Position numbers and translations under genes: made by a program
Shown: piece after piece, positions 389 through 64,000 of the stretch
How the letters are laid out: the number at the start of each line of letters is the position of its first letter
Numbering within the stretch: position 1 is the stretch's first letter
The notes under the pieces: model-generated
What the model was told of the DNA's origin: nothing
The model's database searches: none
Seen by the model: only the letters and a program-made list of their open reading frames with translations
From: Cystobasidiomycetes sp. EMM_F5
Lineage: Eukaryota
Direction of reading: 5' to 3'
Assembly: GCA_051047955.1 (NCBI GenBank)
Contig: JBPGPT010000040.1
Location: forward strand, 1 to 64,000
DNA: 64,000 nt

Positions 389-3092
389 TCAATGTGCGCA
401 CCCGCAAGAATGCTCGCCAATGACTCGCTTCTTGAGGCTGCGACCATTCCTCAAATGCGGATTGTATGAGCCCCGTGCGACGACAGCATCGCGTTTGAGG
501 GCCGCTTCGGACGTTAAACCTGCAAGCAATGTATCGATGGGTGCACGACGAGATTTTGCACGCTGCCCGGAAGTGAACGCCGTTACAGCCAAATCGGACT
601 GATGAACAACTTGACCTCCCACAACAGTCAGTAGCGCTGTGTTCTGATCAGGAGCGCGCCTTATTTATCAGAATAGAAGACCAAGTTTACTTCGATGGGA
701 CAAGCTTACATTACCAATCAGAGCATCAGGCGTGCTCGCGTCAATCATGTCTCGTTGGAGAATGACAAAGTCTGCCATCTTGCCCATTTCGAGACTGCCG
801 ATATCTTTGTCCATGCCCAGCCAGTGCGCTGAGTTCATTGTCATAGCACGCAGGGCGGCGACACGACTCTCTCCCGGCATTGTATTGAGTTGACCTCCGT
901 ATGCTGTCGGGTTGCTATAAGCTGCAGAGTGCGGATTGAGAGGATCGCCACGTCTCAGTACGGCTGCAAAATATTGCAGGAATGCTGTCAAGACAGTGGT
1001 GTTGAGACTGTGACTCCGTGTTACTAGTTGATTTTCCACTCACGATCGTAAACGTCAACCGGCCAGTCCGAACCGTATGCGTTTCCACGCTGGCCACGTT
1101 TAGCGTGCTCTTGTGCAACAAGTCCGAATGGTTCAGCCAATGCAATACGCTCAGGTCCGACGGCTTGGTATGTGTCGTATGCTGGCCGCATGATCCATGG
1201 TATGAGATTGTGCTTCAGATTCCTGACATTGCCTCACTTACCACCGTCGATACTTTTCCACACAGGGCTTAATGCCGCCCACTGTGGTGACGGGACTGCA
1301 AAAACCTTCTGTCAGCAATTGGATCATTCCGTCATTGAAGCGTGGGTCATGTACTGGTGGTGAGGTTCAGTTCGCCAATTCGTGCGATGTCCTCGGGTTG
1401 CACAATCTCAAAATGGGCCATACCAAAATCTTCCTGATTGATGGTGTAGCCCAGCCCTTCCATAGCATCCAGCACGTCGCGGACAGCGCCATCGCCTGAA
1501 GAGCAGAAACAATGTGAGCTACATCGAATACATGTCTTCGTCAGACTGACCGTCGGCGTGCACTTGCAGTCTGAACCCGTGTCGTTTAGCACTCTCGAAA
1601 ACCTATGGGATCTATCAGTTTGCACGCTCAACCTGGGACAACGACGTACAGATCGGATTGCAGTTGCATTATAGTACTGTTTGACAGTCAGGGCATTGAA
1701 GGAAAGAGAGAAAAGTCATAACATACTGGCGGTACGGGTGCCGCATCCGGTACCAACTTGCCTGTCGAGTCAGGCGTGTAGTACGGCGCGATGAGAGACG
1801 CAGTTTTAGACGGAGGCTCGTAGACCCCGTCGGAAAGCATCTGTAGAAGTGTATTCGTTAGTAGTGTTAGTGAGATCCTCTGACCGTATCACACCTTGAT
1901 CGCACGAAAATTCATGCCGGGAGCTGGAACAGTTGCGCCAGAGTCATAGGCTTGCGAGACAGCTTGAAACTTGGCTAGAGTCTCGTCAACTTGGCCAGGA
2001 TAGAGTTGTGTGACCTCAGGCGTGGTCAAAAAGCAAAAGTTTGCTCGGGCCGTCAGTTGCCCGGCCTGCATAACCTCTTGGAATGGTACGGCCATCCTGA
2101 CTTCCGAAGCAGCATCCATGTATGATGTGATTCCGTAGCTATTGAGCATCTTGTTTGCAGCCATTAGCCAGCGCTTATCTTGTTCATTATCATTGGGGAT
2201 AGCCGCTACTACCAGCAGTTCCGCTCCATCTTCAAGTGCACCGGTTGGACAACCCTTAGCGTCGCGTACAATTCGGCCTATATACCAATATGACCTCAGC
2301 CTCTATTGCTACTGCGCTCTGACTGCATACAATATTCTTACCCCCAACCACATCGGGTGTAGAGCAGGTTATATTGGTAGCTTGAAGTCCCGCTGCGTTG
2401 AGTACAAGCGAATGTTGATCCATTGTTTGAACAACAATGGGCCGAGTCGTTTGGAGGGCCGCCAACATCTGGTATGTGAGATCGGATCCTTGCGTCTGAG
2501 AAAAGCCAGCTCTATCGAATGAAGTGGCAAAAAACCATGCATTGCTCGCGGCGTCTGTCTCTGCGTCGAGGCATGCCTGGATCTTTGACAGCAGGCCATC
2601 AAGATTGTAAACTTTAAAGTCAAGATTACATGCTGTGAGGGTCAGCCCGCCCCTGAAGACATGCAGATGAGAGCTTGAAGTAGGAGAACCATTGTTAGTT
2701 CCACTTGATGGAGGTTTTGGGGTAGCGACCTACTCGATGAAGCCGGGATACATAGGCTTTCCGTTTACAGAAATAATCGTTGCTCCTGATACATCGACGT
2801 GATCTAGAAGTTCGCTGGTTTGGCCTATCCAGGAAATGCGACCACTCTTCACTGCGACCGCACCGTCTTTGTAGACTGTGTCCTGACCATCGACAGTATA
2901 GATGGAAGCGTGTGTGTACACAGAATCGGCTAATGCGCAGGTAGTCTGTCGGTTTGCCAATTTGTGGTGACCTCGTCGTGCGTTGTTGGAGGGTTTGGGG
3001 CTTGGATTCGGGTCATTGCAAGCGGAACCGACGGCAACATGGCTTCGAAGGATGCTGCACAGAGCAAGAGCTGCAATGGTCGGAGCGCGCAT
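389..3092 (-). CDS. Secreted metal-dependent amidohydrolase (amidohydrolase_3 / YtcJ-like), multi-exon
   Basis: Signal-peptide-like N-terminus MRAPTIAALALCSILRSHVAVG; spliced PGFID-SHLH metal motif; YGITSYMDA; AHFEIV; MTMNSAHWLGMDKDIGSLEMGKMADFVIL; LLTVVGGQVVH; final exon ends at the stop at 389. Confidence 0.85.
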
Positions 3093-37510: not shown

Positions 37511-38302
37511 CTATTGCGGAGGCGCTACAGTTCCGCAATCCTTACAGGTCCGCAGATCTGGGCTGCTCTGCCATTCCTGTAAAGTATGTCAACTCGTGCC
37601 ACCGCTCTTAGCCATGATGTGGGTAACTTACGCGTATCGGGCTGACTAGCTGCTTGCCGAGGTCTGTGCAATGGAAGGCCACTTCACGAATGAGATGCGG
37701 CTCTTTGTGAGCACCTGAGCGGCAATACCACCGTAGTCGATCTGAATATACAGTTATGATGAGCTAGCAGTCGGACCGTGATACTCTTGCAAGCGCACCG
37801 ATACTCTCGCCTGGGCGAACGCGTTCCATGACGATCCCGACAGTGTCAGCAAAGCGGACAGGACAATGCGGCGTGTTTGCTGCAGAGATTTGCGGACCCG
37901 TTAGTGAAGGTGAATAGACGCAAGTGCCGTCAACGGAAGCTCACCAGGTAGCAGGAACATTTCCCCTTCTTCGATGCGATACTCTCTGAATTCGGATTCG
38001 TCAATCATGCGCAGCAGCATTCCGCCCTTGTATTGATAGAACCATTCTTCCGTCTCATTTACATGATAGTCTAGGTATGTCGTCGAATTGACGCATCTCA
38101 GCTCGACAAGTTTAGAACGGAAATCGGATTCAAGATGTGATTTCGGAAAACGAAGCGCACCATTTCGTTCGTTTGGGCCGCCAACCACCATCATGGTGTA
38201 GTCTTTCCCGTTGTATAGACAGAAATTATTTACAGGCGGCTTCAGGCGGTCCTTGTTCTCTTCAAGCCACCGCGGAAAGTTAATGGGCGGAGCGATAGGC
38301 AT
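37511..38302 (-). CDS. BNA1: 3-hydroxyanthranilate 3,4-dioxygenase (kynurenine/NAD pathway)
   Basis: [89 protein letters not shown]. Confidence 0.95.
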
Positions 38303-38653
38303 GTTGGGGGAAGATAGCTTGATGAGACGATGTCGCAGAGATGTATGGCCAGAGGAGTGAGTGAGATGCCAGTAGGAACAGGATAAGGTTGGCTTGAAAG
38401 CAAGCTGGTTTACGTAATCTTATACGTAGGAAAGCCAGTTGTAGGAGTTGCCAAACGCTGGTATCATGGGTTGCGTGCAACCGCAGGCAAGTTACGAAGC
38501 TTCTGCCCTGGTCCACCGGATCGGAGCTTGCTTCGTTCAAGTCGTCGTATCCATACACTTTGCACGCCACCGGTTCCCAAAACGTGATTGTACCCGGCTC
38601 ACTACTTTGGCCAGCAACGCACACCTGCCGACAATCTAGATCTGCGAGTCGAC

Positions 38654-39656: not shown

Positions 39657-42225
39657 ATGCCTCTGCAGGGCATATGGTCGTTTCTGCGACGCTTCCTGCA
39701 CAACCAGAGCTCGGCAACCTTGCTCTTCAACCCGTACGAGTCGACGACCAGAACTGAGGACGGCAAGCTCAAGCGGAAACGGCCCAAGATTGTGAGCTGT
39801 GACCGCATGCTGCCACTTGCCTTTTAACGGAAGCTTTCTCGGACAGCGGGCTGAACGCACATTGTAATATCTCTATTTCTTCTGCAGGCATATCTTCAGA
39901 TCCTGTATGATCTTTTCATCGTAGCCGCCCTCCAAATTTTCTCTCGCGAAGCTGCCCTCGTAACTGGGGATCAAATTGCTTCCTTGATAGCGTTCTTTAC
40001 CATTCTCTGGTCAGTTATTCACGGCGGGGAGCTTCTCACAACGACTGACCATGTAATTCAGGTCAATATGGGCTTCTCAGGCAATATTCGATCTTCACTA
40101 TCGCAGCGGGCACGATATGCTGTCTATGCTATTTGTCCTTATACAGCTGTCGCTTTTTGGAGCCATGGCAGCGATTGGCGCTGGCTTCAACATCGCAACA
40201 GGCATCAAGCACTTCAAGGACGATCTGCCCGCCGGAATCTTTGAGTGGCTACAGCCTTACAAGGCCGAACTCATTGATCATGACGACCGGAAACGCGCAT
40301 TGCAGACCGCGTCTGCAATGTACGCTATATCTCGCGTGGTATTGGCGTGTCAATACGCCATTGTAACATTGCAAGCAAAACGTGCTTCCTGTCCGGTGCG
40401 ACCAACTCTCTACATTATTGGCGGACTATTCGCCAGCTGCGCTTGTTGGATTGCAGCGTTCTGCTGTGATCTACATTCTGGTCCGAGATGGGCAATTGCT
40501 CGTCTTAGCCTTTGGATTTTGGGAGTAATTTTCGAGTATGGCGTCAGTCTGTGGGTGATGCGAGCAGAGTCTCACTTTGAGTCAGACGATCAATTCTTTC
40601 TGGAGCGTTTCAACGCACTCACTATCATTATCATCGGAGAAGGAGGTGTGTAGATTCCACGAACAGCCTTCATGAAAATACTAGGTCTGACCTACGTGTA
40701 GTCTTTGGCCTATTCGAAAGCTTTTCGTCAGTCATCCAGGGTCCTCAAAGTACACCTAGTGTGACTTCAATTGGAGTCTTGTTTGCATCAATTTGCATGT
40801 ACTTGTCCACATATTGTGAGTATCCGCAACTGGAATTCTGACTGTAATTGCTGATTGGAACACTTCTCGCCGCTAAGACCTGTATTTTGGTCATAAAGTG
40901 GACACGTTCCGCATTATGAGAGGCTCGACCCTCATTTGGGGCATTCTCCATTATCCACTTCACCTATGCCTGTTACTGGTATTTCAAGCTGTCAACTATA
41001 ATGTAGAAGCTGTCGCCGTCCTTGAGGCGCTGGAGGGCTTGATAGACACTGGCGGTTCTGCAGTCGGGGAGCTAGCGGCGTTCTATTTTGCGTCTTCTAA
41101 CGTGACGGTTGACCAATTACTGGAGCTCACACTCACATCGACAAACGGCACCTACTTGAATGCATTCGCCCACAATCTGGGTGTCAACAGAACAGCTGCT
41201 CTCGAGCTTGGAGCTTACATGGCTAACGGCAACACCACCAAATTTTTTCAATGGACTGGCGCAAACACCGCACAGTTGTATACCCGTCTTTTTGCCATCG
41301 CGAGGTTCCCGCCCACGGTGAGCTTGCTAAATCCAGCGGCAGTGGTCTCGACTGATCAGATCAAAGGCGGAGATATACATTTTGTTCGACCAACTTGGCG
41401 AGTACGGTTTCGATTTGCCCGAAGACTGGTCCGATGTCTATTTCGAAGGTATTGTTAGTCTGTACAGACTGATGTATGGAGCTTCTTTATTTGGTGAGTA
41501 ATGCAGCCTGATTGTCTGAAACATTGATCGCTGAGTGAGATCGCAGGTTTTGCTGTTTTGGTGAGATCCTGGCTGGTCCCATTATGTTCCCCACCCGGAT
41601 ACCAGCTGATACGACCACAGGGTGGATATTTGATTATTCTGTCCGCTATAAATTGGCTGCAAGCTTTACCGATGAGTACGTCCCTCGCAGTAACGGCTTT
41701 CATGATAATGAAGCTGATTTCTTGCTGTTCCTTCAGCAAAGTACATCAGAATATCTATCGCTTCGAAGGCAATCATAGGCATCGTCATGGTCGGTCTAGT
41801 TGCGCTCAAGTTAGTCGAAGACAGGATACGTTCAGAGGTTTAGGCTGAGGCGTATCCTACCCCAGTATCGGCGGGTTCAATGTTGACTTGGATGATGAAC
41901 TTTCTGAGTCCCTAATGGCGTCACTGGTATATTCTTACTGGCTAGTCCCATCAATGCTCAGTGCCGTTGTCACTGTGCTGATAGTTGACACGGTATGCTC
42001 TTTCCTGCCAGTTGCGCAACAATCTGACACCTTTGGGTTACCCAGATTCTGTTCCTGTGGAAACATGCCGATATGGACATCAAGCACCTTACCGAAGATC
42101 GCGGCGTTACGGAAGGGGAGCAAGATGAGAAATCCGCACATCCTGTCATCACGTCCGGAGATGTCGCACTAAATCCGCTGTTACGTCGAACCATCACCGA
42201 ATCGCTTCGACACAGCGACGTATAG
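39657..42225 (+). CDS. LtrA (low temperature requirement A)-family multi-pass membrane protein
   Basis: LQILYDLFIVAAL, FFTILW-SIWASQAIFDLHY, FLERFNALTIIIIGEG, WGILHYPLHLCLLL motifs; many TM helices. Confidence 0.75.
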
Positions 42226-51481: not shown

Positions 51482-52793
51482 TCACCAACCGAGTCTATCC
51501 AGACTCGGTCTGTCGTAAGCTGTCTGGAATGGCATGAGAGGTCCGCCGCGAGGGCTGGCGTAGGGTGAAGACGCGATAAGATTCGGTGCCGCAGCTGGTG
51601 CCAGTAGACTCGGAAGCGGTGAGCGAGTGCTTAACCACGGATCTACCTGTGACTGGCCGCCGAACGATTGCCTCCGACTTCTACGACCGCTGTCTATGCC
51701 AAACGCACTCAGAGGTGAATGCATGTTGTTCAATGATTCATGCGACGAGAAAGTGGGGGCTGGATTTGGCTCGCGGGCACTGACTCCAGCCATGAAGGCT
51801 TGCATCATATCGCGGGATGCGCCGCCGAAAGATCCGGAGACTGACGTCGACTGGAACATCATACCGCCACCTTGTGTCATACGCAGACTCTGATGTGATT
51901 TCTCGAACTTCAAATTGCCGTTCCTGCTGAGATGAGCCTGTTGATGATTGTGCTCCAAATTGAAGGGCTTCTGCTTTACTGACGATCTCGAGGGTCCATG
52001 CTCAGACGGTCCGAACAGTGGATGACGGTGGTCATCAACCAGCACGTCATTCGTTGACGTGTAGGCTGGTGGTGGAATGTCCGTTTCGCCAAAGATGCGC
52101 TGAAAGAGATACATTGGGTCTAGGTTACGCAAGTCATCGGGCCCAAATGCAGTAGGACCTCGACGAGATTCTCTCGGCTCGTTCACGAAGCTTGATCTGA
52201 AGTTGGCTGTGAAGTGAGGACGACTGCTTGATCTGCTGGCCTTCTTGTGACGGCCTTGACGGAGGGTTTCATCGTACTCTGCACGTCTTTTAGCTGAGCC
52301 CACATATCAGCAGAGAGAATCTACAAGGGTGCTACAATTGCAACTACTAACGGTCAAATAGGATGGCGAAAGCTTCTCCGACGCGCTGAAAGCGGTGTTT
52401 GGCCGACACCTGGCCGCTGCCCTCACTACGATGCCGATCTGGGTGCCAACGCAGTGCCTGTTTCTTGTATGCGCGCTTGATCTCATCTTGCGAAGCATCC
52501 TCCGAAACCTTAAGTGTTTCGTAAGCAGTGGCAGTGTCAGCAAGCGACAAGTCGGCCTGAAGAGACTCCAGCGAGGGGAGCCTTGGAGTCCCAACATGCA
52601 CGGATAGCGATGTTGACGGTGAGGCAGGAGGCAGTAATCCTAGTGTGCGCTGCACAGCGAGGTCATTGACGACGTCGTCATCGTCAGACCCAGTTTCACG
52701 ACGAGTACGCCAGCCGAGCTGCTTGGAGGTGCGGAACATTTGCTCGTCGTCTGATCCATCATCGTAGTCTCCGTAGAATGAGCGCCTCGACAT
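51482..52793 (-). CDS. J-domain (DnaJ/Hsp40-type) protein with low-complexity flanks
   Basis: AYETLKVSEDASQDEIKRAYKKQALRWHPDRH...FQRVGEAFAILFD...KRRAEYD; HPD intact. Confidence 0.85.
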
Positions 52794-53113
52794 TGTACTG
52801 CAGGCTGCGAGTGGCGTGAAAAAGAGAGCTGCGCGAAGCCATTCGTCAGTCCCGTTGAACCGCGAGTGAAAGCGTTTGTTTGGGCAGCTCGAAACATCAG
52901 ATTGCCAGAGTGGCGGTAAATGGATAGCTCATATTCATATAGGTCTTCTACAGTCGGTCATACGCCAAAGCAAAAAAGCGCATCGTTCGTTTGTGCGATG
53001 CTTCGTTGAAGGCTTCCGTATGCTGAAGTCTGCGATTTTTGAAACAAAGTCGGGCAGAACCAGCTTGGCGTCTTGCTGTGCAGGACTGTTCGATACCAAA
53101 TGCATGGCTTCTC

Positions 53114-55875
53114 ATGAGCTCCTCGTCAGCGCCAAAGAAGCGCGTTGCCGCCTGCGCAGGATGTAACCGTCTCAAGGTCAAGCTGACTGGCAATTGCAGA
53201 TTGATTGCTTCGAAAGCTGATCTGCCTTATCGCTAGATCAAATGCGTTCGGGCTTCCACGACAGATGTCTGCAGACGTTGCGATGCAGTAAGGGAAGAAT
53301 GTGTGACTCCGGCTCGTCATTTTGGTCGGACTTGGGGAAGTAAAAACAAGAAGACGCTGTTGCGACTTGCCAACGATCTAGATGCTTCAGCAGCATCAAC
53401 ATCCGGGCAACATTATCCAGTAGAAATCGAGCATGGGACAATTGAAAGCAGCGCACAACCTTATCAATCATTTCCGACACAACAAGCACAGTGGCCCTTG
53501 CCCAATAATGCTGAATCCTACATACGTGCTCCGGGTCCATCGCGTATCTCACAATATCCGCATGTGGGCGGGACGGGTTTGCAAGATTCGCTTGAACCTC
53601 TACAGATGCTCAACATTACAGTCCCTCAGTCGTCTAGTCGGTGCGTTCATTTATCGCCGGCTCTGAAACCCTGCCCTCTCATTCCATCACCTTAGAAACG
53701 ATTGTGTCAATTATGCATCCATTCTTGAAAGTTTCGACGGATGCGCCCGCCAGCTGGACCCTATTTATGGAGGTAGGCTCTTCATGCTAGTCCTATGCTA
53801 GTCCTATAGGTCAGCGAAGTGACTCTTGCTCTTTGCAGTGGAACTTGTCCGAGAAGGCTTGGAAGCGCTCTTTGCGCCTAATCTAGACGATCAATCTATC
53901 TTGAAGGAGGTGGACCGCGCAGACCTGCCGCTCTCCGATGCGGGTATATCGGAGTATGATCCACTATCCTTGGGCTTGGTCACCTGGCGGGAGGCGGAAC
54001 ACCTCTTTCGAACGTGAGCAAGTCTGGATCAATCACGAATGCAGTCAAGCGCTAACCAGGGGGCATCAAGCTTCTTTGCCGAAGTACAGCCTAGCCTTCG
54101 TATTCTTGATCCGTCATTACATTCCATCACCTTCGTCCGCTCTCGCTCTAGCTTTCTATTTTCAGTCATGTTGGAGGTGTCTCAGACGAGCGTTTCAGAT
54201 GGCACGCAAGAGAAACGCGAGACCCTGCGCAAGCATACGGACTGGCTCATATCTGAAATCCATGGAAAAGGTTGGCTCGTCATTGTCCACTACGCGTATA
54301 AGCTCTGTCCGTTGACACGAGACTCTTTTGCTTGGCAGGGTTCAAGAGTATAGAGATCTGTCAAGCTTTCCAGATCCGCTCTGCCTGGCAGATGCCGTCG
54401 TCACTGAGCGAACAACGGTATGTCGTAATTGTCTGCTGAACGAATTCGCCGTTTAATCTCAATATAGCATCTGGCAACAACTGGGATCTGCCCTGACAAT
54501 GGCAATTGAGCTGAGGTTAGAAGTTGAACACCCTTACTGTGTTTCATGCGACAGCGATTGGAAACAACTGGACAAGATACAGCAAGAACGTCGGCTCCGA
54601 AACGCACAACGGGCTTGGTTATGCCTCTTCAACAGGGATCGAGCGTAAGTGTCTACTCTCACGCTTCCGATAGAGTAACACAATCTAAAAGACGAAGACC
54701 AGTATCGCATCAATATGCGGTAGATCTGCCGTTTTGCCCGAAGGTCCCTTACTTGCGCCAGACTTTCTGCGGAGATGGTTCCGATCGCCTGTAAGTGGAC
54801 CGAGGCTTCCATGTATAGATTCTATTTGTTGAGTGTCGCCCAGTTCGCCATTCTTGATGACGTCACAACCGTCGCGGCCGTCGACTTGCGTCGTATGATA
54901 GTGAGCCTTTTCATTATGCAAAATTATGAACTGCCTGACTAGTGAAGGGGCTTGTCAGCCTAGCACACAAACCATGGTCACAGCCCAGCATGGCAGGGAT
55001 CCTCTGAACTTCGAAGCCATCAAAGCGATTGTCGATTCTGCCATCGCGAAATGGAGGCAAGATTGGCATTCTCAGATGGACGATTCTGCCTTTGCGTATT
55101 TCAACCTGACAGCAACTTTCACTCGCTTCTTCCTGATTGCTACACCATACGATATGGCTATGCGCACTAAGACACTGCCTGAAGAAGCTCGCGATCAGTG
55201 AGTCGGATGTCTGTGTACAATCAACGCCAAGTTGATCGCAATACGCTGGCTCGCAGATGCCTATTGGCGGCACTCGAAGCCTGTCAGGCAGCAGTGCAGC
55301 ATTTGTCGGCCCGAAAACGACAATATGAAGCAGCCGGGCGAAAGCAATTTGCGCCTACATTGAGGTTTGCGCTCGTGAGGGCGATTTTTACCGTGGTTTT
55401 GAAGCTGCTAATGCGTCCAGTAGATTATGTATGCGGCATCAGCATCCATCAAGCTCCTGGAAAGTTGCGAGGGTGCTAGCGCAGGCATGGGACCTGCTGC
55501 CGATCTATACCACCTTGCGATCTTGGCACAGCTCGCTAAGCAGATTCAAGCGATTGGGTCTCCAAACGCTCGTTATGCTTCCGCCGCATACACTTTCGGT
55601 GTTGTCAGTCCCCTCAGTCAAGTCTGTTGACGTCTGCTGAGTACTTGCCATTGCAGCGTCTTATGGCCCTGGCACGTCGTCTAGCTGCTGAGAAAATATC
55701 GAGCTTTGCTATCGAAGCGGCATCCAGTGAAGGCAATGAGTCGGAAGCGGATACTGGATTGGCACAATCTTCCTTCTACGATTATTTCGTCAACGACAAC
55801 TACCTCTCTGACGTACTCGTAGATTCCCTCTGGTGCGGAGCTGAATCGCCGACCCACTTCAAGTTTAATACATAG
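53114..55875 (+). CDS. Zn(II)2Cys6 transcription factor with fungal middle-homology region
   Basis: Spliced C-AG-C-NRLKIK-C-VRASTTDV-C-RR-C-DAVREE-C; DPLSLGLVTWREAEHLF, ILDPSLHSITFVRSRSSFLF, KSIEICQAF. Confidence 0.88.
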
Positions 55876-55902
55876 ATTACTCAAACCACACGCGAAAATG
55901 CC

Positions 55903-57983
55903 CTAGTGAAACCCATTCGCTTGGACCACTTTTGAGCGTTGTAATGCAGGCAGTCCCGCCTTAGCTAGATCCGCGTTCACTCTGTCCAAATGCTTGAAAA
56001 AGTCTCCCTTGAAGCGCCAGCCTTCTCGATCATCCACTACAAGAAGGCATCTCTCAGCTTTGACGCGACGACCGCCAAGACGACTCACCTTCATACTTGC
56101 CGCTGCGGTACATCGCGTAATCTGTCACCGTACATGTACGACCGATGTGGAATTGGAAGCCTTCGGACGTATGGCTATGTTAGCAGCTCGCAACGCCCCA
56201 AACGTCGCACACTTCGCTCACCCAGCATTCCTTCGCCGATGCGTTCAGCATTTCCTGCATCCTCGATTGCCCGTGTAAATTCCGCTTCGCTCACTGCGTA
56301 TTTACGTACGTCGTGTCAGCTACTTACTCCCTGGTGTGCTGTAGACGACTCACAACCGTGCGGACCGAAAGGCGGCTGATATGTTAATCCGCCCTGACTA
56401 CAATAAGAGTTGCAGTCAGCAGCGCTCCTGGCACTTCTGCTGATTTGCTTACTCCGAATGCGATATTCCGCGGGATGGCCCATAAATCAGTCCACCGATT
56501 TCAGTGAAGAGGTGCCGATGGTAATACTGGCGACCTTCGTGAGCCCGTGCTTAGTGAGCAACAGCAAGAAAATAGTACTCACGGGCGGGCGGAAGGTGTT
56601 TGTAGACACCTGCCACTTCGGAATGAAAGCGTTGAACTCAGCGACAGCTACTCCGGTCATCTTGGACTTGGCCATCAGCACGCAATAGATCGTAGGATCA
56701 ACTTGATCTTTATCGAGTACGCCCATCGTGACGAAACGGTGGATGTCGTATTTATACGGGCCTGATCCGATTCAATTGTCAGCTCGCTTCGCATCATCGT
56801 GAACCTTGTGTATGCTTGCAGTAAGTGCCGTGCCATGCGACGACATCGTAAGGGGTGTGATCTTGGTAGCAGTGGAACATATTTCCGCCCATCCTGGGAA
56901 AGTCTGTCAGGACGAATTATGCCTTTGCTGGACTTCGCGCTCACTTGTAGATGATTTCCCATGTCGATTGATCCAGATCAAATGAGGCGACAGGCGTCTC
57001 AAAGTCTCGAGGTAAAGCGAGACCATTCGTTCCTATTACGCCGAGCTCCGGCAGCTCGTACGAAACGCCATACACTTCCTGAATGTCTAAATACGTCGAG
57101 AGGTAAGCCCACAGGCTCGTGATTCGGTTATTACCCATACTTACATCCGCGAGATGTACCATCTGGTAGCCGGACAGTGAAGCGATGGCCCTTAGGAATG
57201 ACTGCGAACTCGCCGGGTTTGATCATCATGCTGCGTACGCAATTCCCGCACTGTTAGACATTTGGCGAAAGACCAAAAGCAAAGTCGTATAACCTACTGC
57301 CCAAGTTCTGTCTGTATATCCAGCCGACCCTCACACGGAAGAATCATCATTTCACCGTCAATGCTAGAGAAGGATCGTTTGTCCATATCCTTTGAGCAAG
57401 TGTAGATATGAATTGCGAGTCCTTCGTTCTCCGTGGGTTCGCCGCTACCGCAGATGCTCTTGATACCCTCGACGAAGTCAACAGGAGCTGCGGAATCCAC
57501 TTCGAAGGGTAGCCATGTGATCCGAATCGGTGTCGTGTGTACACGCGGATTTGATGGAGAATAGTTTGCTTCCACATCCGGCGTAGGTGCCATTGGCTCG
57601 AGAAGATCGTGAGCAACCGTAGGATAAATACGGTAGAGCCATACGTTTTTCGTCGTAGCCCTGGAGCCGATAAAGCCAGTACCATTGAGGGACTCGGAAA
57701 CTAAATCGTACTTTATCTTCTGCGGCGTATTTTGACCAACGGGCAGCACTCCAGGTCTAGGAGCGAGGAAAGGCTCAGCTTCCGTTGACGAGCATGCTCG
57801 CGCCGTACTCACATGGCCTCAGAAACAAAGCGATTGCCAAATCCTGGCATCTGCGGTGAATGATTACATGAGCTCATGTCCCATGCGCCAAAGATGGTCT
57901 TCAACGAACATAGCTAAGAAGTCATGAGATTAGCTTCGGACAAGCGTACGGAGCTGCTGCATTGCACACCTGTATGGGTCCAT
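55903..57983 (-). CDS. Divergent homogentisate 1,2-dioxygenase-like enzyme (start codon uncertain)
   Basis: [94 protein letters not shown] (His/Glu/His Fe ligands retained). Confidence 0.88.
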
Positions 57984-58320
57984 CTTGGTGGCCGGGCTGG
58001 CATACGGAGCACGCGCGGTGGACACGATTGTATCAGCTTGCTTTCGTAGACAGTGAGTACAGTATGGAGCTCTGCAGAGGATTTCATCTTCTTCTATCAG
58101 CGGCAACTTGCACCGGAAGTTCGGCCTCGAAATCGGTCTACAGATCCACCAGGCACGGCCAAGAGGATGTGCCGGCATACAAGCCGCCGCTGTCGGGCAA
58201 ATTCTTGTTATCGAGCCAGTCACGAGCAGTGCGGAAGATGCCAAAACATCGAGCGTAGACTATGCGTGTGCCGGCTGGGATCCAGGTATACTGTTGCGTT
58301 AGCGGAGGGTGCAGCTTGTC
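57984..58320. promoter_or_regulatory. Bidirectional promoter between the dioxygenase and the hydrolase
   Basis: Head-to-head genes about 340 bp apart; several CGG/CCG triplets and GATA-like sites. Confidence 0.55.
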
Positions 58321-59435
58321 ATGACCGTCAAAGCCTATCAGCCGCTGCACGAACAAGTCCGCAAGACGCTTGATCCGCAATACGTTGCCATCCACGACAG
58401 GTACCTCCAGTACATTCAGCCTGTCAACGAACTGCCATGGACGCCAGCACTTCGCTATCGCTCAATGGGCTTTGCCAGCCAAACGCCTCCAGCTGCCGTC
58501 GGAAGCGTGGTGGACCGGACACTGAAGTCATTTCGAATGCGAGTGTACACTCCAGCGTCTGAGAGGCCTGCGCAAGGCTGGCCAGTTCTTGTCTGGTATC
58601 ACGGAGGCGGCTGGGTGACCGGTGGTATCGAAAGCGACTCTTCATTCTGCAGTCAATTCTGCGCGACTTGCGAATCTGTGGTCGTAGCAGTCGATTATCG
58701 CTTGGCTCCAGAGAACGTCTTTCCGGCTGCTTATGACGATGCAGTTGCAGCACTGCGCTTCGTTTACGAGGATGGTCAAGCAGAACTTGGCATCAACCAA
58801 GAACAAATTGGCATTGGAGGGTTATCTGCGTGAGCCTTTCTCCGTACTACACAAATGGTATCCTATAGATTGCTGAAACATGCTTTGCATGCAGCGGTGG
58901 GGGTTTGGCTGCAAGTGCTGTGTTGGCTGCATCAGACTTGAAGATTGCTCTTCGATTCCAACTGCTCATTGTTCCAGTTCTGGACAATACCGCAACCAGC
59001 TCGCCGGGCGGACGGTGGTCGAGCAAACCGTTCGCACCGTATCTTGGTGCGGAGCGTATGCTATGGTTCCGTCAGCAGTATCTGCCTCGGCAGGCAGACT
59101 GGTCTGACTGGAGATGCAGCCCTGCTCTGGCAGACGAGGATCGATTGCGCCGTCTTTCCACAATACCTACCTGGATAGCTGTAGCAGATCACGACATCCT
59201 AGCAGAAGAGGCGACGATCTATGCAGAGGTATTACGATCAGCTGGCGTGAAGGTGCATTTGGAGACTGTACGTGGAGCTACCCACTCCATCTTGTTGCTC
59301 GACGCGTGAGTTTTAGCTGGTCTGTCTAGCTACATGAGAAGGCACTAAAATTAGGCTGCATCCTAAAGAGTGATAGATTCAGCGCGACGATTAAGGCTTG
59401 ATGCCATCTTCTGGGCTAAAAGCCTATTGTTGTAA
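58321..59435 (+). CDS. HSL-family alpha/beta hydrolase (abhydrolase_3)
   Basis: VWYHGGGWVTG, VDYRLAPENVFPAAYDD, GGLSA-GG nucleophile, DILAEE, GATH. Confidence 0.9.
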
Positions 59436-59558
59436 CGAGACGTGCGAAGCTGTTTCGCTGTGACACAAATGCAACGGAGAGCAATGTCGCAACAGTTCTG
59501 ATGGTGTAGCCTGCATTTTGATCAATGTTGGCGAATTTACAAAGAAGGCATCCGAACA

Positions 59559-61421
59559 CTAAGTCGTAGCATTACGAAGCAGCCTCTCCGCTTCTGCAGA
59601 ACGGTATCGGACCTTCGCGATTGCAAAGGTCTTGTCTGCATCAACGCGGCCTCGGAACCCTTCCTCCCTGAAAGTTGCGAGTCAGCTCTGTCTGATTATC
59701 ATGTCGCGACTGCTTACCAGACGAGTTTTGGCACACCCGGTAAGCCAGTACTGGCGTCGATAGCAGGCTCAATGTGCAACGTAGCGATGAAGGTTGCAAG
59801 TATCTGATAGATGGTGGAAGTAGCAAGATGCTGGCCGACGCACACGCGTCGTCCGAAGCCCCATTGTCCAACCGGATACGGTTCTCCTCGCAGGTAGCGG
59901 TCCGGGTCGAAGACGTCTGGGTTAGAATAGATTTTCGGATCGTGTGTCATTGCGCTGCGAAATCATGTCACAAACGGTCCCCAACACAGAATGAGCGTAT
60001 GCCTACAGTGCATTGGCGAATATCGTAGTGCCTTTCGGGACTGTCAAAAAGAGAGCAATTCAGCGGGCGGCTTAGGCATATGGATTATGGAATAATCGCA
60101 CTAAAGTAGCCGCGGAACATGTCGTCTTGCATTGACTTGTGGGGAAGGCCAAGCGGAGTAGCCGGAAACCACCGTAAAGTCTGCCCAGATCGTCAGCAAC
60201 GGAAATGTAGGTGTCCGAAGCAACGTCTTACCTCGGCTATGAGTCGCTGTAAGTACGGGAGGCTTTCTCTGTCGGCCATTTCTGGCAATCTATCACTACC
60301 GACTACGGCATCCATTTCTGCTTGAGCCTTGCGCTGAATCTCCGCATTCAGATACAAGTTTGTAATGGTGCTGATGATGGTGTTTGTCGTAGTGTCCTGA
60401 CCAGCTGAGTACATCGTGACAGCTGCGCCAGCGGCATCTTCGGTCTTCATCTGACTTTCGGGCTCATCCGCCACGACCTGCAGAAGCTGCAGTAGGAGTG
60501 ATGGCTGGGCTGTTCCAGATTTCTGCGACCACATTGAGCCATAGACACCTTACATGTCGACCTTTCTCACCATCTGTTCACGGACCCTCGCGCATGGAAC
60601 CTCGTGTATATTCTTGCAGGAAATGATGTGCTTTCGAGCCGACCTCAGCGGTGCGGAAGCCAAGAAGTTTGGCATGTATTTCAAGAATGGAGCAAAATCA
60701 AGAACAGTGACACCTCCGAAGCCTCCAACGCCGTCCAATCCTTCGCTGGCTTTGACTGCAATTTGAATGAATGGGTCATCGTCCTTTTGTATTGTCTGGC
60801 CAAACGCTGCGTTGAGAACTATGGAAGTCGCAGTCCGACGGATATTTAGACTGATATTGTTCTGTCGTTCTACGAATCTTTGAGCCAGCAATCGGGCTTC
60901 TCGCTCTTGAACGGATGCATATTGACTGATTGCGGATTTGGAAAGGAATCTTTGCAGGATCTTACGATGCGCTTGGACTAAACGGGCGTATCAGTAGGCT
61001 AACATTGCGCACATTCGTGTCACTGACATCTCTTCCCCCAGCGCATGAATGAAATAGTATGACGGAAGCCTTGGATCAACGCATAATGAAATGTAGGGCG
61101 GTCGGAGTTGTTCGCTCCTCGCTTGTCTAGCAGTTCGGTCGCCATTTCTGCATTGTTGATAACCAGGGTTGGCATTACCAGTACCCTGAAGAAGATAAGG
61201 TCGCCATATTGCTTTCCCCACACATCTTTGTAGAACCTGGCTGGAAAGATGGTAGGAGTATGACGAAGGCAGCCCAGGATAGGATCGCCTTTTGGTCCCG
61301 GCGGAAACGGCTTGTTGACGAGCGACGGTTGCACGATCCGATACACGATGTACAGAATGTACGTTGCGATGAACGCTGCCACAGCGGTTGCGGCCGGACC
61401 TAGTTCCACTTTGAAGGCCAT
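59559..61421 (-). CDS. Cytochrome P450 monooxygenase (CYP64-clan-like)
   Basis: TM anchor plus PPGPKG; ELLDKRGANNSDRP; I-helix AGQDTT; E-TLRW K-helix; FDPDRY; heme motif WGFGRRVCVG. Confidence 0.93.
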
Positions 61422-61667
61422 CTTGTACGTCTTGCTTCGCACAGAGCAGAAGAGTGGTTCATTTCAGCAGCAGGTGTGTATAGCTAGCATGCGACGCGGC
61501 TGTAGAATCTGGTTGCCGGTGCCGATGTGCCTGAAATGATAAGAGCGGCTGGGAGGTGGAGGTGGGCTGGGAATTGACCGGTGAGGTACTGGAAGCTCGA
61601 CCCAGACCGCTGTCGAGTTGAGCGCTGTCGAGATTCACTATTCGCAAAGCAAAATCTGCTATACGTA
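61422..61667. promoter_or_regulatory. Bidirectional promoter between the P450 and the amidohydrolase
   Basis: Head-to-head genes 246 bp apart; TGATAA site and CCGG elements. Confidence 0.55.
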
Positions 61668-62473
61668 ATGGCGACAAATGGACATGTCCACAAGATGGGC
61701 TGGGGCACCAATGTGGCCTTACTCATGGTAGATGTCTGTACTGCATGTCAGTTTGCTGATATCAACATACATATGTATGCGCGATGAAGACTAACCTGCT
61801 CTTCTCGACCAGACTGGGCTGATGGCTCGCCGAACGACTTAAGAGCCAATGCGGAAGCAGTCAAGGTTCCTGATGTGATGCGTCGACTTCTATCAGCAGC
61901 AAGGAAAGGCCGTGTGCCGGTCATTTGGACGGCTGTAAAATTTACTCATCCGGACATGTTGGACGCTGGCATCTTCTACTTGAAACATCCGCACTTGTCC
62001 ATATGGCAAGCCGGCGACAAGCGTGGGTACGACCAATGGATGCCAGGACTAGAGCCAGAGCCGGAGGATCTCGTCATCTACAAGCAATATCCCAGTCCAT
62101 TCTTCGGCACCACTCTTGCTACGTCGTTGCGACACATGGGTGTGGATACGTTAGTGCTCTGTGGAGTTTCGACGAGCGGTTGTGTGCGAGCTGCGGTGGG
62201 GCACGAACAGATAACATCGAAGACAATACTGAAGCTGTCGCTCATTCTTTTAGACATTGGATGCAATGTGCCATGGCTTCAGACCAATGGTGAGCAGGGT
62301 TGGAGCAGAGTCCCAGGCTGAGCTGATAGAACGGCCAGGTTTGCCGACCAGCATGCGGTGACAAGTCTCAGGAGGTTCAGGAAGCGAATCTGTACGATAT
62401 GAACCGTAAATATTGTGATGTGATAACAGAGCTCGACGCAATCGAGCATCTGCAGAAACCTTGGAGCCGATGA
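61668..62473 (+). CDS. Isochorismatase-family cysteine amidohydrolase (NicF / N-carbamoylsarcosine amidase-like)
   Basis: GWGTNVALLMVD (catalytic Asp), KQYPSPFFGT (Lys), CGVSTSGCVRA (Cys), LDAMCHGFRP, ACGDKSQEVQEANLYDMNRKYCDV. Confidence 0.9.
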
Positions 62474-62571
62474 AGCTTTGTCCCTTAAGTATCCGTTCAA
62501 GTTGTCGTAAACAACATCCTCTCTCCACGCCTGAATTCGTGCCGTGATACTGCTGCTTTTTGGATCTGAAT

Positions 62572-64000
62572 TTACAACGCCTGCTCCGCTATTGGCATCG
62601 CCCTTCTCCTCCTTCGAGCTCGAAATCGCGGGCCAAACGTCACCTCGATGTACCACAACGGCGCGCACACTACAGCGATCAATGCCATGGTCGTGTACAT
62701 CCAGCCTGGGCCCAGTGCCTGGAGCAGCGGATCGACTATGGCAGTACCCCCAGCTCCGAGCAAACAGCGGGAGAGATTCATTGATGCAATGGCCGATGCT
62801 GAGGCTTTTGGGAAGAGGTCGACCCTGTCACATGGACGTTAGGAGATCAAATCCGCGAAAACAGCGTTTCTTGCTCACAAAAGCGTGGAGTGACTGTTCG
62901 TTATCGTTGTGCTCGTGATACCTACGATAAATTGGAGAATGAGCGGGACTGCCAGATGAGCTCTGCACTGTACCGCCCATCCATATCCGATGACTGAACC
63001 AGCAAGTAAAACGAAATAGTACGCTATGAACGGCCGTCAGCAGTGCGCTATACTCTGGCATTTACGATCGCAGCGATATTCTCACGTATAGTGCGCAGTC
63101 TTGCATGCTCTATTGGGAAGTCGTCGCCGTCTGTGCGTGCGACTTGCATATCTTTATGCTGCTTCCTGAACTTCTCGACGGTCAAGCGGTAGTCTCGGTC
63201 TAGCCTACGAGTGTTGAGCAGAGCCGCTGCAATGCAGCCGGCACCGAAAGCGAGGAAACACAGGCCGATCTCGCTTTCGTTCAATCCATAAGGTGCCTGT
63301 AATACAACGGCAACCGAAGTAATGACACTGTAGAAAAGTGTATCTATAAGGACATGCAATCATCAGACCGCATAATCTTGACATTGAGATAATTTACTGA
63401 CAGCATATAGCGTTGAAACCGAGAATGAGACAAACATCGGGTTGCCCGAAGTTTTTGACTGAAGCAAGCCAGTCAATATCCTTCCAGCTTTTCGCCGTTG
63501 GACGTTGTTCCTGTATTTGTTCGACTTTACTCGAAGTTGTGTTTCCGTCTGAGCGTTGCCTGAGCCAGTATAGCAGCGACGTGTTGACGGGCTTAGGAGG
63601 AATACTTCCGTTGCCAACGAGAGAGCGCAGAGTCTGTGACAGATGTCAACGAAAATTCTGGCATCCAAAGGCGTCATTACCTCTGGAAGAACGGCTGCCA
63701 TGATAAGGAAGACCACACCAGAAAAAGCTGCCAGAAATGCAAAGATTCTGCATGGGGCGTAAATCAGGACGGAGCGCAAAGAGACTGCCGTCCAGGCTCA
63801 GCTTACGATTGCCAGCCAAAAGCTTGCGTCATGAGCCCGCCGATTACCGGTCTGCAGAAAAGATGTCAGCCTGGAGACTGAAGAAGAAGCCAAAGAGAGT
63901 CAACTGACCCGATGGTCGGACCGAGCTGAGGTCCCAACTGGTATATTCCCATAAATCCGCCTCGTTCTGATCTATCAGCAATATCCCCGATGAATCCGCC
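62572..64000 (-). CDS. MFS transporter, DHA1/QDR-like; 5' part lies outside the window
   Basis: GFIGDIADRSERG, GPTIG-PVIGGL, WQSLFAPS...LPE-TLR, YGLNESEIGLCFL, DFPIEHARLR, NLSRCLLGAGG. Confidence 0.85.

Follow-up and report, generated by a model that had tools for sequence, protein, structure and literature searches.

Eight central ring-opening intermediates, homogentisate and methoxyhydroquinone among them, are listed for fungi in PMC13094099, and the copies of homogentisate 1,2-dioxygenase (HGD) in Pezizomycotina, as described in PMC12420386, fall into several old clades, suggesting functional divergence. Two of the described systems closest to the locus considered here are built around HGD-family paralogs. 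In Aspergillus niger, according to the part of PMC8336404 devoted to these genes, the HGD-like gene mhdA (NRRL3_10111) adjoins the carboxylesterase gene omeA (NRRL3_10110), and both are among the genes most induced by the guaiacyl aromatics coniferyl alcohol, ferulate, vanillate and veratrate. Their deletion stops the pathway; purified MhdA converts methoxyhydroquinone into a methyl ester, 4-hydroxy-6-methoxy-6-oxohexa-2,4-dienoate, and the omeA mutant accumulates 4-oxo-monomethyl adipate (PMC8336404). A neighbouring gene of the major facilitator superfamily (MFS), NRRL3_10109, is upregulated by 3.6-4.0 log2-fold in all four conditions (Table S2 of PMC8336404). In Phanerochaete chrysosporium, two HGD-family enzymes with conserved iron ligands, the methoxy-/dimethoxyhydroquinone 1,2-dioxygenases PcMHQD1 and PcMHQD2, prefer hydroquinones over homogentisate, and both favour methoxyhydroquinone (PMC11634970). 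Here, we analyzed a stretch of 64,000 nucleotides from Cystobasidiomycetes sp. EMM_F5 (positions 1 to 64,000 of contig JBPGPT010000040.1; hereafter, the window), in which six genes at 53114-64000 encode, in this order, a Zn2Cys6 transcription factor (+), an HGD-family dioxygenase (-), an HSL-family hydrolase (+), a cytochrome P450 (-), an isochorismatase-family hydrolase (+), and an MFS transporter (-). The reading that we favor, with slightly less than even confidence, is that of a compact cluster with a catabolic or detoxifying role, its genes probably co-regulated and directed at a substituted para-diol of the hydroquinone type other than homogentisate, that is, a counterpart of the methoxyhydroquinone route of A. 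niger with a P450 and an amidase added.

The argument starts from the dioxygenase. Domain calls throughout were made with Pfam on stop-to-stop open reading frames (ORFs), and spliced models were then built by hand and by coordinate. Three exon ORFs of the dioxygenase gene on the minus strand at 56.5-57.8 kb match the family, one to HgmA_N (E 8.6e-44), one to HgmA_C (E 1.2e-13), and a further one at E 1.8e-12, and alignment with relatives and with human HGD places all iron ligands, the His-x5-Glu pair and the downstream His (in PHG), at the expected positions. By contrast, the active-site lid is altered. The first iron ligand is followed by the motif HRH, versus HRN in all 28 relatives compared, and the lid position 15 residues after the first ligand His is occupied by Ser, versus Tyr in 18 of the 28 relatives and in human HGD. 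According to a review of white-rot aromatic metabolism, the lid Tyr touches the carboxylate of homogentisate, and PcMHQD2, which has Phe at this position, does not convert homogentisate (PMC11634970); loss of the lid Tyr is thus a feature that the window dioxygenase has in common with PcMHQD2. Elsewhere in the tree, two divergent HGD-family proteins (P0182 and P0262) likewise lack the lid Tyr and start their lids with Gly-Pro ('GPM...' and 'GPS...'), as does the window protein, which may reflect recurrent remodelling of the lid.

Phylogeny and profile scores point in the same direction as the lid. In a maximum-likelihood tree of 29 rows, the dioxygenase joins P0001, P0002, P0136 and P0157 with support of 100/97, in a clade nested within a larger group that includes the Rhizoctonia type and is separate from the canonical group with the 'YDAK' lid. 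Against TIGR01015, the hmgA equivalog model with a cut-off of 510.75 bits, the three clade mates for which scores were obtained reach 471, 444 and 388 bits, and the Rhizoctonia relatives, at 546 bits, lie above the cut-off. For the window dioxygenase itself, a score of about 429 bits is predicted from a local proxy profile, which is not TIGR01015 but was built from six high-scoring sequences and correlates with the NCBI score at r = 0.98 on 15 non-training sequences. The closest solved chain, 9pz4_A, deposited as a homogentisate 1,2-dioxygenase, matches exon 2 with 157.7 bits, as against 117 for human HGD and 93 for the Pseudomonas putida enzyme, and it, too, has lost the lid Tyr; a 24-aa exon of the dioxygenase gave only a chance match in the PDB. 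Because the lid Tyr is lost, HRN is replaced by HRH, and the protein groups with paralogs below the hmgA cut-off, the enzyme, to judge from its sequence, probably does not act on homogentisate, in line with a first-pass annotation of this DNA, in which an HGD paralog was proposed to cleave a para-dihydroxy (hetero)aromatic.

Close relatives of this paralog are few. A word-indexed search with a dioxygenase exon returned 12 longer relatives (from Lachnellula and Rhizoctonia), the best of them 55% identical over the exon, and HMMER, run exhaustively over 1.84 billion cluster representatives, yielded only five matches at E <= 1e-30, the best to a 172-aa fragment (77% identity) and the next at 48%. 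This public fragment (P0133) matches exon 2, which means that the unusual paralog has a close copy in at least one further organism. In the predicted splice models, the reading frames of the cluster genes run intact across GT-AG introns, with a single exception in the dioxygenase gene, where the 58-nt intron at 56762-56819 appears to be GC-AG (donor GCAAGC). This assignment is preferred because it keeps the spacing of the conserved WHGxYxPYKYD; an alternative GT donor 15 nt downstream was rejected, as it would insert four residues into this motif and leave an intron of only 43 nt.

The second component that sets the locus apart is the amidohydrolase, which matches the Isochorismatase family (PF00857, E 1.6e-17, 61.8-62.3 kb). 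Its model with three introns was checked against eight fungal homologs, which also served to set the first donor, and alignment with them shows the Asp-Lys-Cys triad in place. The protein belongs to a widespread fungal group with 754 relatives, the best named one being 66% identical, in which automatic names include N-carbamoylsarcosine amidase, maleamate amidohydrolase and nicotinamidase-related. Solved structures were ranked both with the amidohydrolase exon and with a full-length fungal homolog, to which the following bit scores refer: N-carbamoylsarcosine amidase 26st comes first (121 bits), followed by an isochorismatase-family chain of Bordetella bronchiseptica (3ot4/3uao, 105 bits), another N-carbamoylsarcosine amidase (1nba, 95 bits), and two isochorismatase-family chains of P. 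putida (4l07, 91 bits, and 4l08, 87 bits), with ureidoacrylate, biuret and nicotinamide hydrolases scoring far lower. We take 3ot4/3uao to be the Bordetella NicF and 4l07/4l08 to be Ami, the maleamate amidase of P. putida S16. On sequence, then, the enzyme falls into the NicF/CSHase subgroup, as a hydrolase of small amides or carbamoyl groups. This placement does not specify a substrate, and the best solved relative is an N-carbamoylsarcosine amidase and not a maleamate amidase. Hence, of the claim that it is a NicF-like amidase, the subgroup shared with maleamate amidases stands, and the implied preference for maleamate is not matched by the best solved relative. A database record holds a 147-aa prokaryote-style gene call (P0013) that is identical to the amidohydrolase exon at 61.8-62.3 kb; the contig in that record is 83,606 nt long, so that about 19.6 kb of the contig lies outside the window.

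The remaining two enzymes are of less distinctive types. Both main exons of the hydrolase match PF07859 (E 1.2e-26 and 1.8e-23; 58.3-59.3 kb), and the protein shows the HGGG oxyanion motif, a G-L-S-A-G nucleophile elbow, and a candidate Asp followed by a His in the expected order. The NCBIfam LipP1 and HSL subfamilies match its fragments, all below cut-off, and its PDB matches include many bacterial and archaeal carboxylesterases, for instance, Est8 (4ypv, E 1.3e-22). The 3' end is model-dependent: with the 40-nt last exon, the protein extends 20 residues beyond the catalytic His, and three shorter alternatives exist, one with a stop codon at 59307-59309 and two with an acceptor at 59355 and 59377, respectively. 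The P450 has Pfam matches on three exons (59.7-61.5 kb), including ones with E 4.5e-19 and 9.7e-13, and displays a hydrophobic anchor at its N-terminus, the PPGP hinge, AGxDTT in the I-helix, the ExxR motif, and the haem loop FGxGRRxCxG. Its nearest solved chains are microsomal enzymes of the CYP1A1, CYP17 and CYP2 types (E ~1e-10 with a 97-aa exon), a generic resemblance, and an Atlas look-up returned unnamed clusters only.

The outer genes of the locus would supply regulation and transport. In the regulator gene, which opens with an ATG, the six-cysteine pattern CX2CX6CX8CX2CX6C near the N-terminus is read across the 60-nt first intron, and because the pattern is split by this intron, the fragments gave no Pfam match to Zn_clus. 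The rest of the gene, searched as unspliced fragments, had no Pfam match and no fungal-specific transcription factor domain. An automatic exon model of this gene was discarded, as it had picked the wrong frames. In the MFS gene, two fragments match MFS_1 weakly (E 0.0034 and 0.011), at mutually consistent profile positions, and the exons read as typical helices of the DHA1 type; the gene crosses the window end at 64000, leaving its 5' part, approximately the first four helices, outside. Coordinates of all features are collected in the table.

Features of the six-gene locus of Cystobasidiomycetes sp. EMM_F5 (positions in the window; splice models are predicted)
Feature	Position	Strand	Size	Details
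Zn2Cys6 transcription factor gene	53114-55875	+		Exon 1 53114-53176, intron 53177-53236, exon 2 from 53237, stop 55873-55875
HGD-family dioxygenase paralog	55903-57850	-	457 aa	11 exons: 57813-57850, 57298-57756, 57145-57230, 56945-57086, 56820-56893, 56583-56761, 56453-56526, 56354-56397, 56222-56293, 56089-56160, 55903-56036; ten introns of 51-67 nt
Bidirectional promoter, dioxygenase/hydrolase	57851-58320		470 bp	One copy each of two 8-mers (58273, 58188)
HSL-family alpha/beta hydrolase (Abhydrolase_3)	58321-59435	+	319 aa	Exons 58321-58829, 58895-59305, probably 59396-59435
Cytochrome P450	59559-61421	-	516 aa	Six introns; exons 61028-61421, 60571-60977, 60232-60522, 60102-60180, 60007-60040, 59718-59954, 59559-59667
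Bidirectional promoter, P450/amidohydrolase	61422-61667		246 bp	8-mer direct repeats at 61547 and 61565, and at 61608 and 61623
Isochorismatase-family cysteine hydrolase	61668-62473	+	210 aa	Exons 61668-61746, 61813-62195, 62254-62289, 62339-62473
MFS transporter (DHA1-like)	62572-64000	-		Stop 62572-62574; at least six introns in the window; exons read one by one

Pfam matches, motifs and the exon-by-exon reading thus bear out the six genes and strands named in the first-pass annotation, as well as the layout that it described. The four enzyme genes form two head-to-head pairs, dioxygenase with hydrolase and P450 with amidohydrolase, and the convergent stop-to-stop gaps are 27 bp between the regulator and dioxygenase genes, 98 bp between the amidohydrolase and MFS genes, and 123 bp between the hydrolase and P450 genes, the latter value depending on the last-exon model of the hydrolase (otherwise, 158-249 bp). 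The HGD paralog and the isochorismatase-family amidase lie about 3.8 kb apart.

The window as a whole is fungal DNA in which introns are short. Long ORFs of the first 53 kb belong to housekeeping genes, including those for an IQGAP-type RasGAP, ribosomal proteins, a GH47 mannosidase, 3-hydroxyanthranilate dioxygenase, S-adenosylmethionine synthetase, and a DnaJ protein (52350-52928); from 53114 onwards, the gene content changes. Domains of FAA_hydrolase, GST and glyoxalase type, which would mark fahA, maiA and hppD, were found neither among the 62 ORFs of at least 130 aa in 1-53 kb nor among the ORFs of 53-64 kb, so that these genes are indeed missing from the ORFs scanned, as had been claimed. 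Polyketide synthase, nonribosomal peptide synthetase and terpene synthase domains were likewise not detected in ORFs of at least 130 aa in 1-53 kb and in a chosen ORF set in 52-64 kb, and the window ORFs scanned included neither a maleate isomerase nor an enzyme that forms fumarate. The 3-hydroxyanthranilate 3,4-dioxygenase gene (37904-38419, minus strand; Pfam 3-HAO, E 1.4e-28) encodes another enzyme that opens aromatic rings, in this case within the kynurenine route, and is located about 15 kb upstream of the cluster, with housekeeping genes in between. Other features of the upstream region include a spliced gene for a metal-dependent amidohydrolase (1892-2729, minus strand), in which two adjoining ORFs match Amidohydro_3 at successive profile positions, and an ORF at 40057-40650 (plus strand) that matches, at E 3.4e-10, LtrA (low temperature requirement A), a bacterial family.

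By analogy, the mhdA-omeA-MFS locus of A. niger is the closest precedent for this arrangement, one that the first-pass annotation had overlooked and that would explain the dioxygenase/hydrolase pair without nitrogen chemistry. Both loci combine an HGD paralog outside the HmgA group with an adjoining carboxylesterase-type hydrolase and a nearby MFS gene; they differ in that, here, a P450 and a cysteine amidohydrolase are inserted between the hydrolase and the MFS gene, and a Zn2Cys6 gene is present. The likeness to PcMHQD1 and PcMHQD2 is drawn by description of the enzymes only, and the passages of PMC11634970 that deal with them report no linked amidase or P450. With the fungal homogentisate cluster (hmgA, fahA, maiA and hppD), the locus has in common the dioxygenase fold, domains and iron ligands; unlike that cluster, it comes without the three companion genes, and its dioxygenase has lost the lid Tyr and belongs to a clade scoring below the hmgA equivalog cut-off. 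The FDB1 and FDB2 benzoxazolinone clusters of Fusarium resemble it in being compact, in containing Zn2Cys6, MFS, hydrolase and amidase genes, and in acting on a nitrogen-bearing aromatic, but the families described for them in PMC4726666 are amidase-signature, dienelactone hydrolase, metallo-beta-lactamase and salicylate hydroxylase, with none of the HGD, P450 or isochorismatase type; because the enzyme families differ, we set this comparison aside.

The bacterial NicX/NicD/NicF route, together with Ami of P. putida S16, was the model chosen by the first-pass annotation. What links it to the locus is the isochorismatase-family amidase with an Asp-Lys-Cys triad, which falls in the same subgroup, and an overall logic in which a diol is made, the ring is opened, hydrolysis follows, and ammonia is released. 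What separates the two are the families of the ring-opening and first hydrolytic enzymes and the lack of an isomerase among the window ORFs. NicX is not a member of the HGD family, which contains the sole dioxygenase of the cluster, and NicD belongs to a family other than that of the HSL-type enzymes, into which the hydrolase falls as a carboxylesterase type by its PF07859 match and HGGG motif; the assignments of a nic-type ring opening and of a NicD-like hydrolase are therefore not upheld. Nor does any evidence point to an N-heteroaromatic ring as the substrate. Thus, from the catabolic pathway originally claimed, the gene content, the layout, and an HGD paralog that probably does not use homogentisate are retained, and the nic-type enzyme families and the pyridine substrate are not.

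Gene identities, open frames, catalytic residues, the altered dioxygenase lid and the amidase subfamily are read directly from the sequence; for the substrate, the order of steps and the co-regulation, we infer the following scheme. The Zn2Cys6 factor would switch on the cluster genes, and the MFS protein would carry the compound, or else a product, through the membrane. The membrane-anchored P450 would hydroxylate or dealkylate a phenolic precursor to yield the para-diol, which the HGD paralog, using Fe(II) and O2, would open between a hydroxyl-bearing carbon and the adjacent substituted carbon, as happens with homogentisate and methoxyhydroquinone. The product would be a maleylacetate-type acid, the other end of which is an acyl derivative of the substituent (an ester, amide or ketone). 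Indeed, cleavage by HGD-family enzymes leaves the substituent in acyl form, as a ketone in the case of homogentisate and as a methyl ester in that of methoxyhydroquinone, and by inference, an amino substituent would give an amide; this would make sense of a hydrolase next door. Removal of this substituent, or of a side group already present in the original compound, would then fall to the two hydrolases, the serine enzyme of HSL type and the cysteine amidohydrolase, one of them presumably attacking a C-O (or aryl-amide) bond and the other a small amide or carbamoyl group beside a carboxylate. Given that the amidase would be idle in the oxygen-only precedent, a nitrogen-bearing substrate is possible but unproven. 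The corresponding version of the scheme, to which we assign a slim chance, has the HGD paralog open an N-substituted para-diol beside its N-bearing carbon, directly to a maleamate-like amide, from which the enzyme of the NicF/N-carbamoylsarcosine amidase type releases ammonia. The diol could be, for example, an amino- or amido-hydroquinone that the P450 makes out of an aminophenol or an aryl-amide, or else a dihydroxypyridine.

Several observations weigh against the favored reading of a para-diol cluster. The lid Tyr is absent in 10 of the 28 relatives, so that its loss is common among divergent paralogs and by itself names no substrate. The Ser at the lid position and the unique HRH are peculiar to the window enzyme, and nothing indicates methoxyhydroquinone as its substrate; in the A. 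nidulans sequence that Table S5 of PMC8336404 lists under MhdA, the lid motif, read by eye, differs as well. The likeness of the window dioxygenase and hydrolase to MhdA and OmeA is one of type and adjacency, and full-length identity of the dioxygenase to any relative does not exceed 52.5%. The amidase, moreover, is left unexplained by the A. niger precedent, given that the methoxyhydroquinone route needs none. For the P450, a word-indexed search of longer proteins with the variable exon gave 358 candidates, none of them at E <= 0.001, and hence no ortholog of this exon. The best named relatives also come from different hosts, Lachnellula and Rhizoctonia for the dioxygenase versus Saccharata and Geosmithia for the amidase, giving no hint that the genes have traveled together. 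Conserved co-location found no support in a metagenome scan with the dioxygenase exon, which recovered two loci without usable flanks (1851 and 1618 nt; 37% and 54% identity), and our literature search turned up no fungal cluster uniting an HGD with an isochorismatase-family enzyme. In bacterial genomes, the best 80 HGD (hmgA) loci, 40-46% identical to the fungal clade, have within 8 kb no homolog of the amidase, none of the P450, and a single one of the hydrolase; thus, the pairing of dioxygenase and amidase has no bacterial model. Finally, the statistical case for co-regulation is post hoc. Exactly two 8-mer families are repeated within the P450/amidase promoter, and each of them turns up a single time, with unchanged orientation, in the dioxygenase/hydrolase promoter; both families are present together in only 4 of 5000 versions of the latter promoter simulated by a first-order Markov model and in only 1 of 264 window tiles of equal length, frequencies obtained with a test that was devised after the words had been seen. 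The longest word shared by the two promoters is not significantly longer than in shuffled sequences. The repeated-word test being the sole statistical support for a co-location beyond chance, the shared 8-mers are suggestive only as a sign of co-regulation.

How far, then, do other explanations account for the locus? That six common fungal gene types adjoin each other here without serving a single pathway, we consider unlikely. Such a chance neighborhood would fit the great number of P450, MFS, Zn2Cys6 and alpha/beta-hydrolase genes in filamentous fungi, the different fungi in which the best relatives of different genes reside, and the metagenome scan, which gave no sign of synteny. It is harder to reconcile with the proximity of two rare gene types, the HGD paralog and the isochorismatase-family amidase, with the very short intergenic spaces and the two divergent pairs, with the two 8-mers common to both bidirectional promoters, and with the published linkage of a dioxygenase, an esterase and an MFS gene in A. 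niger (PMC8336404). A role of these genes in tailoring or self-protection, within a secondary-metabolite cluster that has its core synthase beyond the window end, we regard as very unlikely. A P450, hydrolases, an MFS transporter and a Zn2Cys6 factor are typical accessories of such clusters, and the MFS gene does cross the window end, with up to about 19.6 kb of the contig beyond; against this, the ORFs scanned across the 64 kb gave no match to a core synthase domain, the upstream 53 kb is housekeeping DNA, and the combination of a dioxygenase that cleaves rings with a hydrolase of small amides suits degradation better than biosynthesis.

The other two alternatives accept a catabolic role and differ in chemistry. 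A fungal counterpart of the bacterial maleamate route, in which the P450 would produce a diol resembling 2,5-dihydroxypyridine, the HGD-type enzyme would open it, the hydrolase would deacylate or deformylate the product, and a NicF-like amidase would free ammonia, appears distinctly unlikely, a weaker special case that draws almost wholly on the amidase subgroup. This subgroup includes the two solved enzymes that we presume to be maleamate amidases, and several fungal relatives carry the automatic name maleamate amidohydrolase; furthermore, the lid Tyr that binds homogentisate is gone, and a C-N bond is probably cut somewhere, as the methoxyhydroquinone precedent has no need for an amidase. 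Opposed to this are the N-carbamoylsarcosine amidase that tops the list of solved relatives, the HSL-type carboxylesterase in place of a NicD, the lack of a maleate isomerase or fumarate-forming enzyme in the window, the absence of isochorismatase-family homologs around the best 80 bacterial hmgA loci, and, above all, the HGD-family nature of the ring-opening enzyme, since we know of no cleavage of a pyridine diol by this family. The substrates reported for HGD-family enzymes in the relevant sections of PMC11634970, PMC8336404 and PMC12420386 are only homogentisate and methoxy-/dimethoxyhydroquinone. Homogentisate itself would be the intermediate if the locus were an ordinary or auxiliary homogentisate route. 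PhacA and PhacB of Aspergillus nidulans are P450s that hydroxylate phenylacetate and hydroxyphenylacetates to homogentisate, and the P450 two genes away from the dioxygenase could do likewise; in the dioxygenase, the two HgmA domains are present and none of the three iron ligands is missing, and its closest named relatives, among them the Rhizoctonia proteins above the cut-off, are annotated as homogentisate 1,2-dioxygenases. Yet, this explanation strikes us as highly improbable, considering the replacement of the lid Tyr by Ser and of HRN by HRH, the scores below the hmgA cut-off for the scored clade members and, by proxy, for the protein itself, the absence of fahA, maiA and hppD in the 64 kb scanned, the lack of any role for an esterase or an amidase in that route, and a P450 that cannot be assigned to the phenylacetate hydroxylase family.

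Methoxyhydroquinone joined the ring-opening intermediates of fungi only in 2021-2024, through HGD paralogs, and the locus described here couples an HGD clade with an altered lid to defined partner enzymes, including an amidase that would be superfluous for methoxyhydroquinone. To our knowledge, a route through an N-substituted para-diol would, if real, be the first nitrogen-releasing one on the HGD fold. It would also raise the number of central ring-opening intermediates in fungi, of which PMC13094099 lists eight, to nine. If the six genes do not act together, they represent an ordinary run of common fungal gene types; if they do, the locus would encode a further route for substituted hydroquinones, possibly one for a nitrogen-bearing plant or xenobiotic aromatic.

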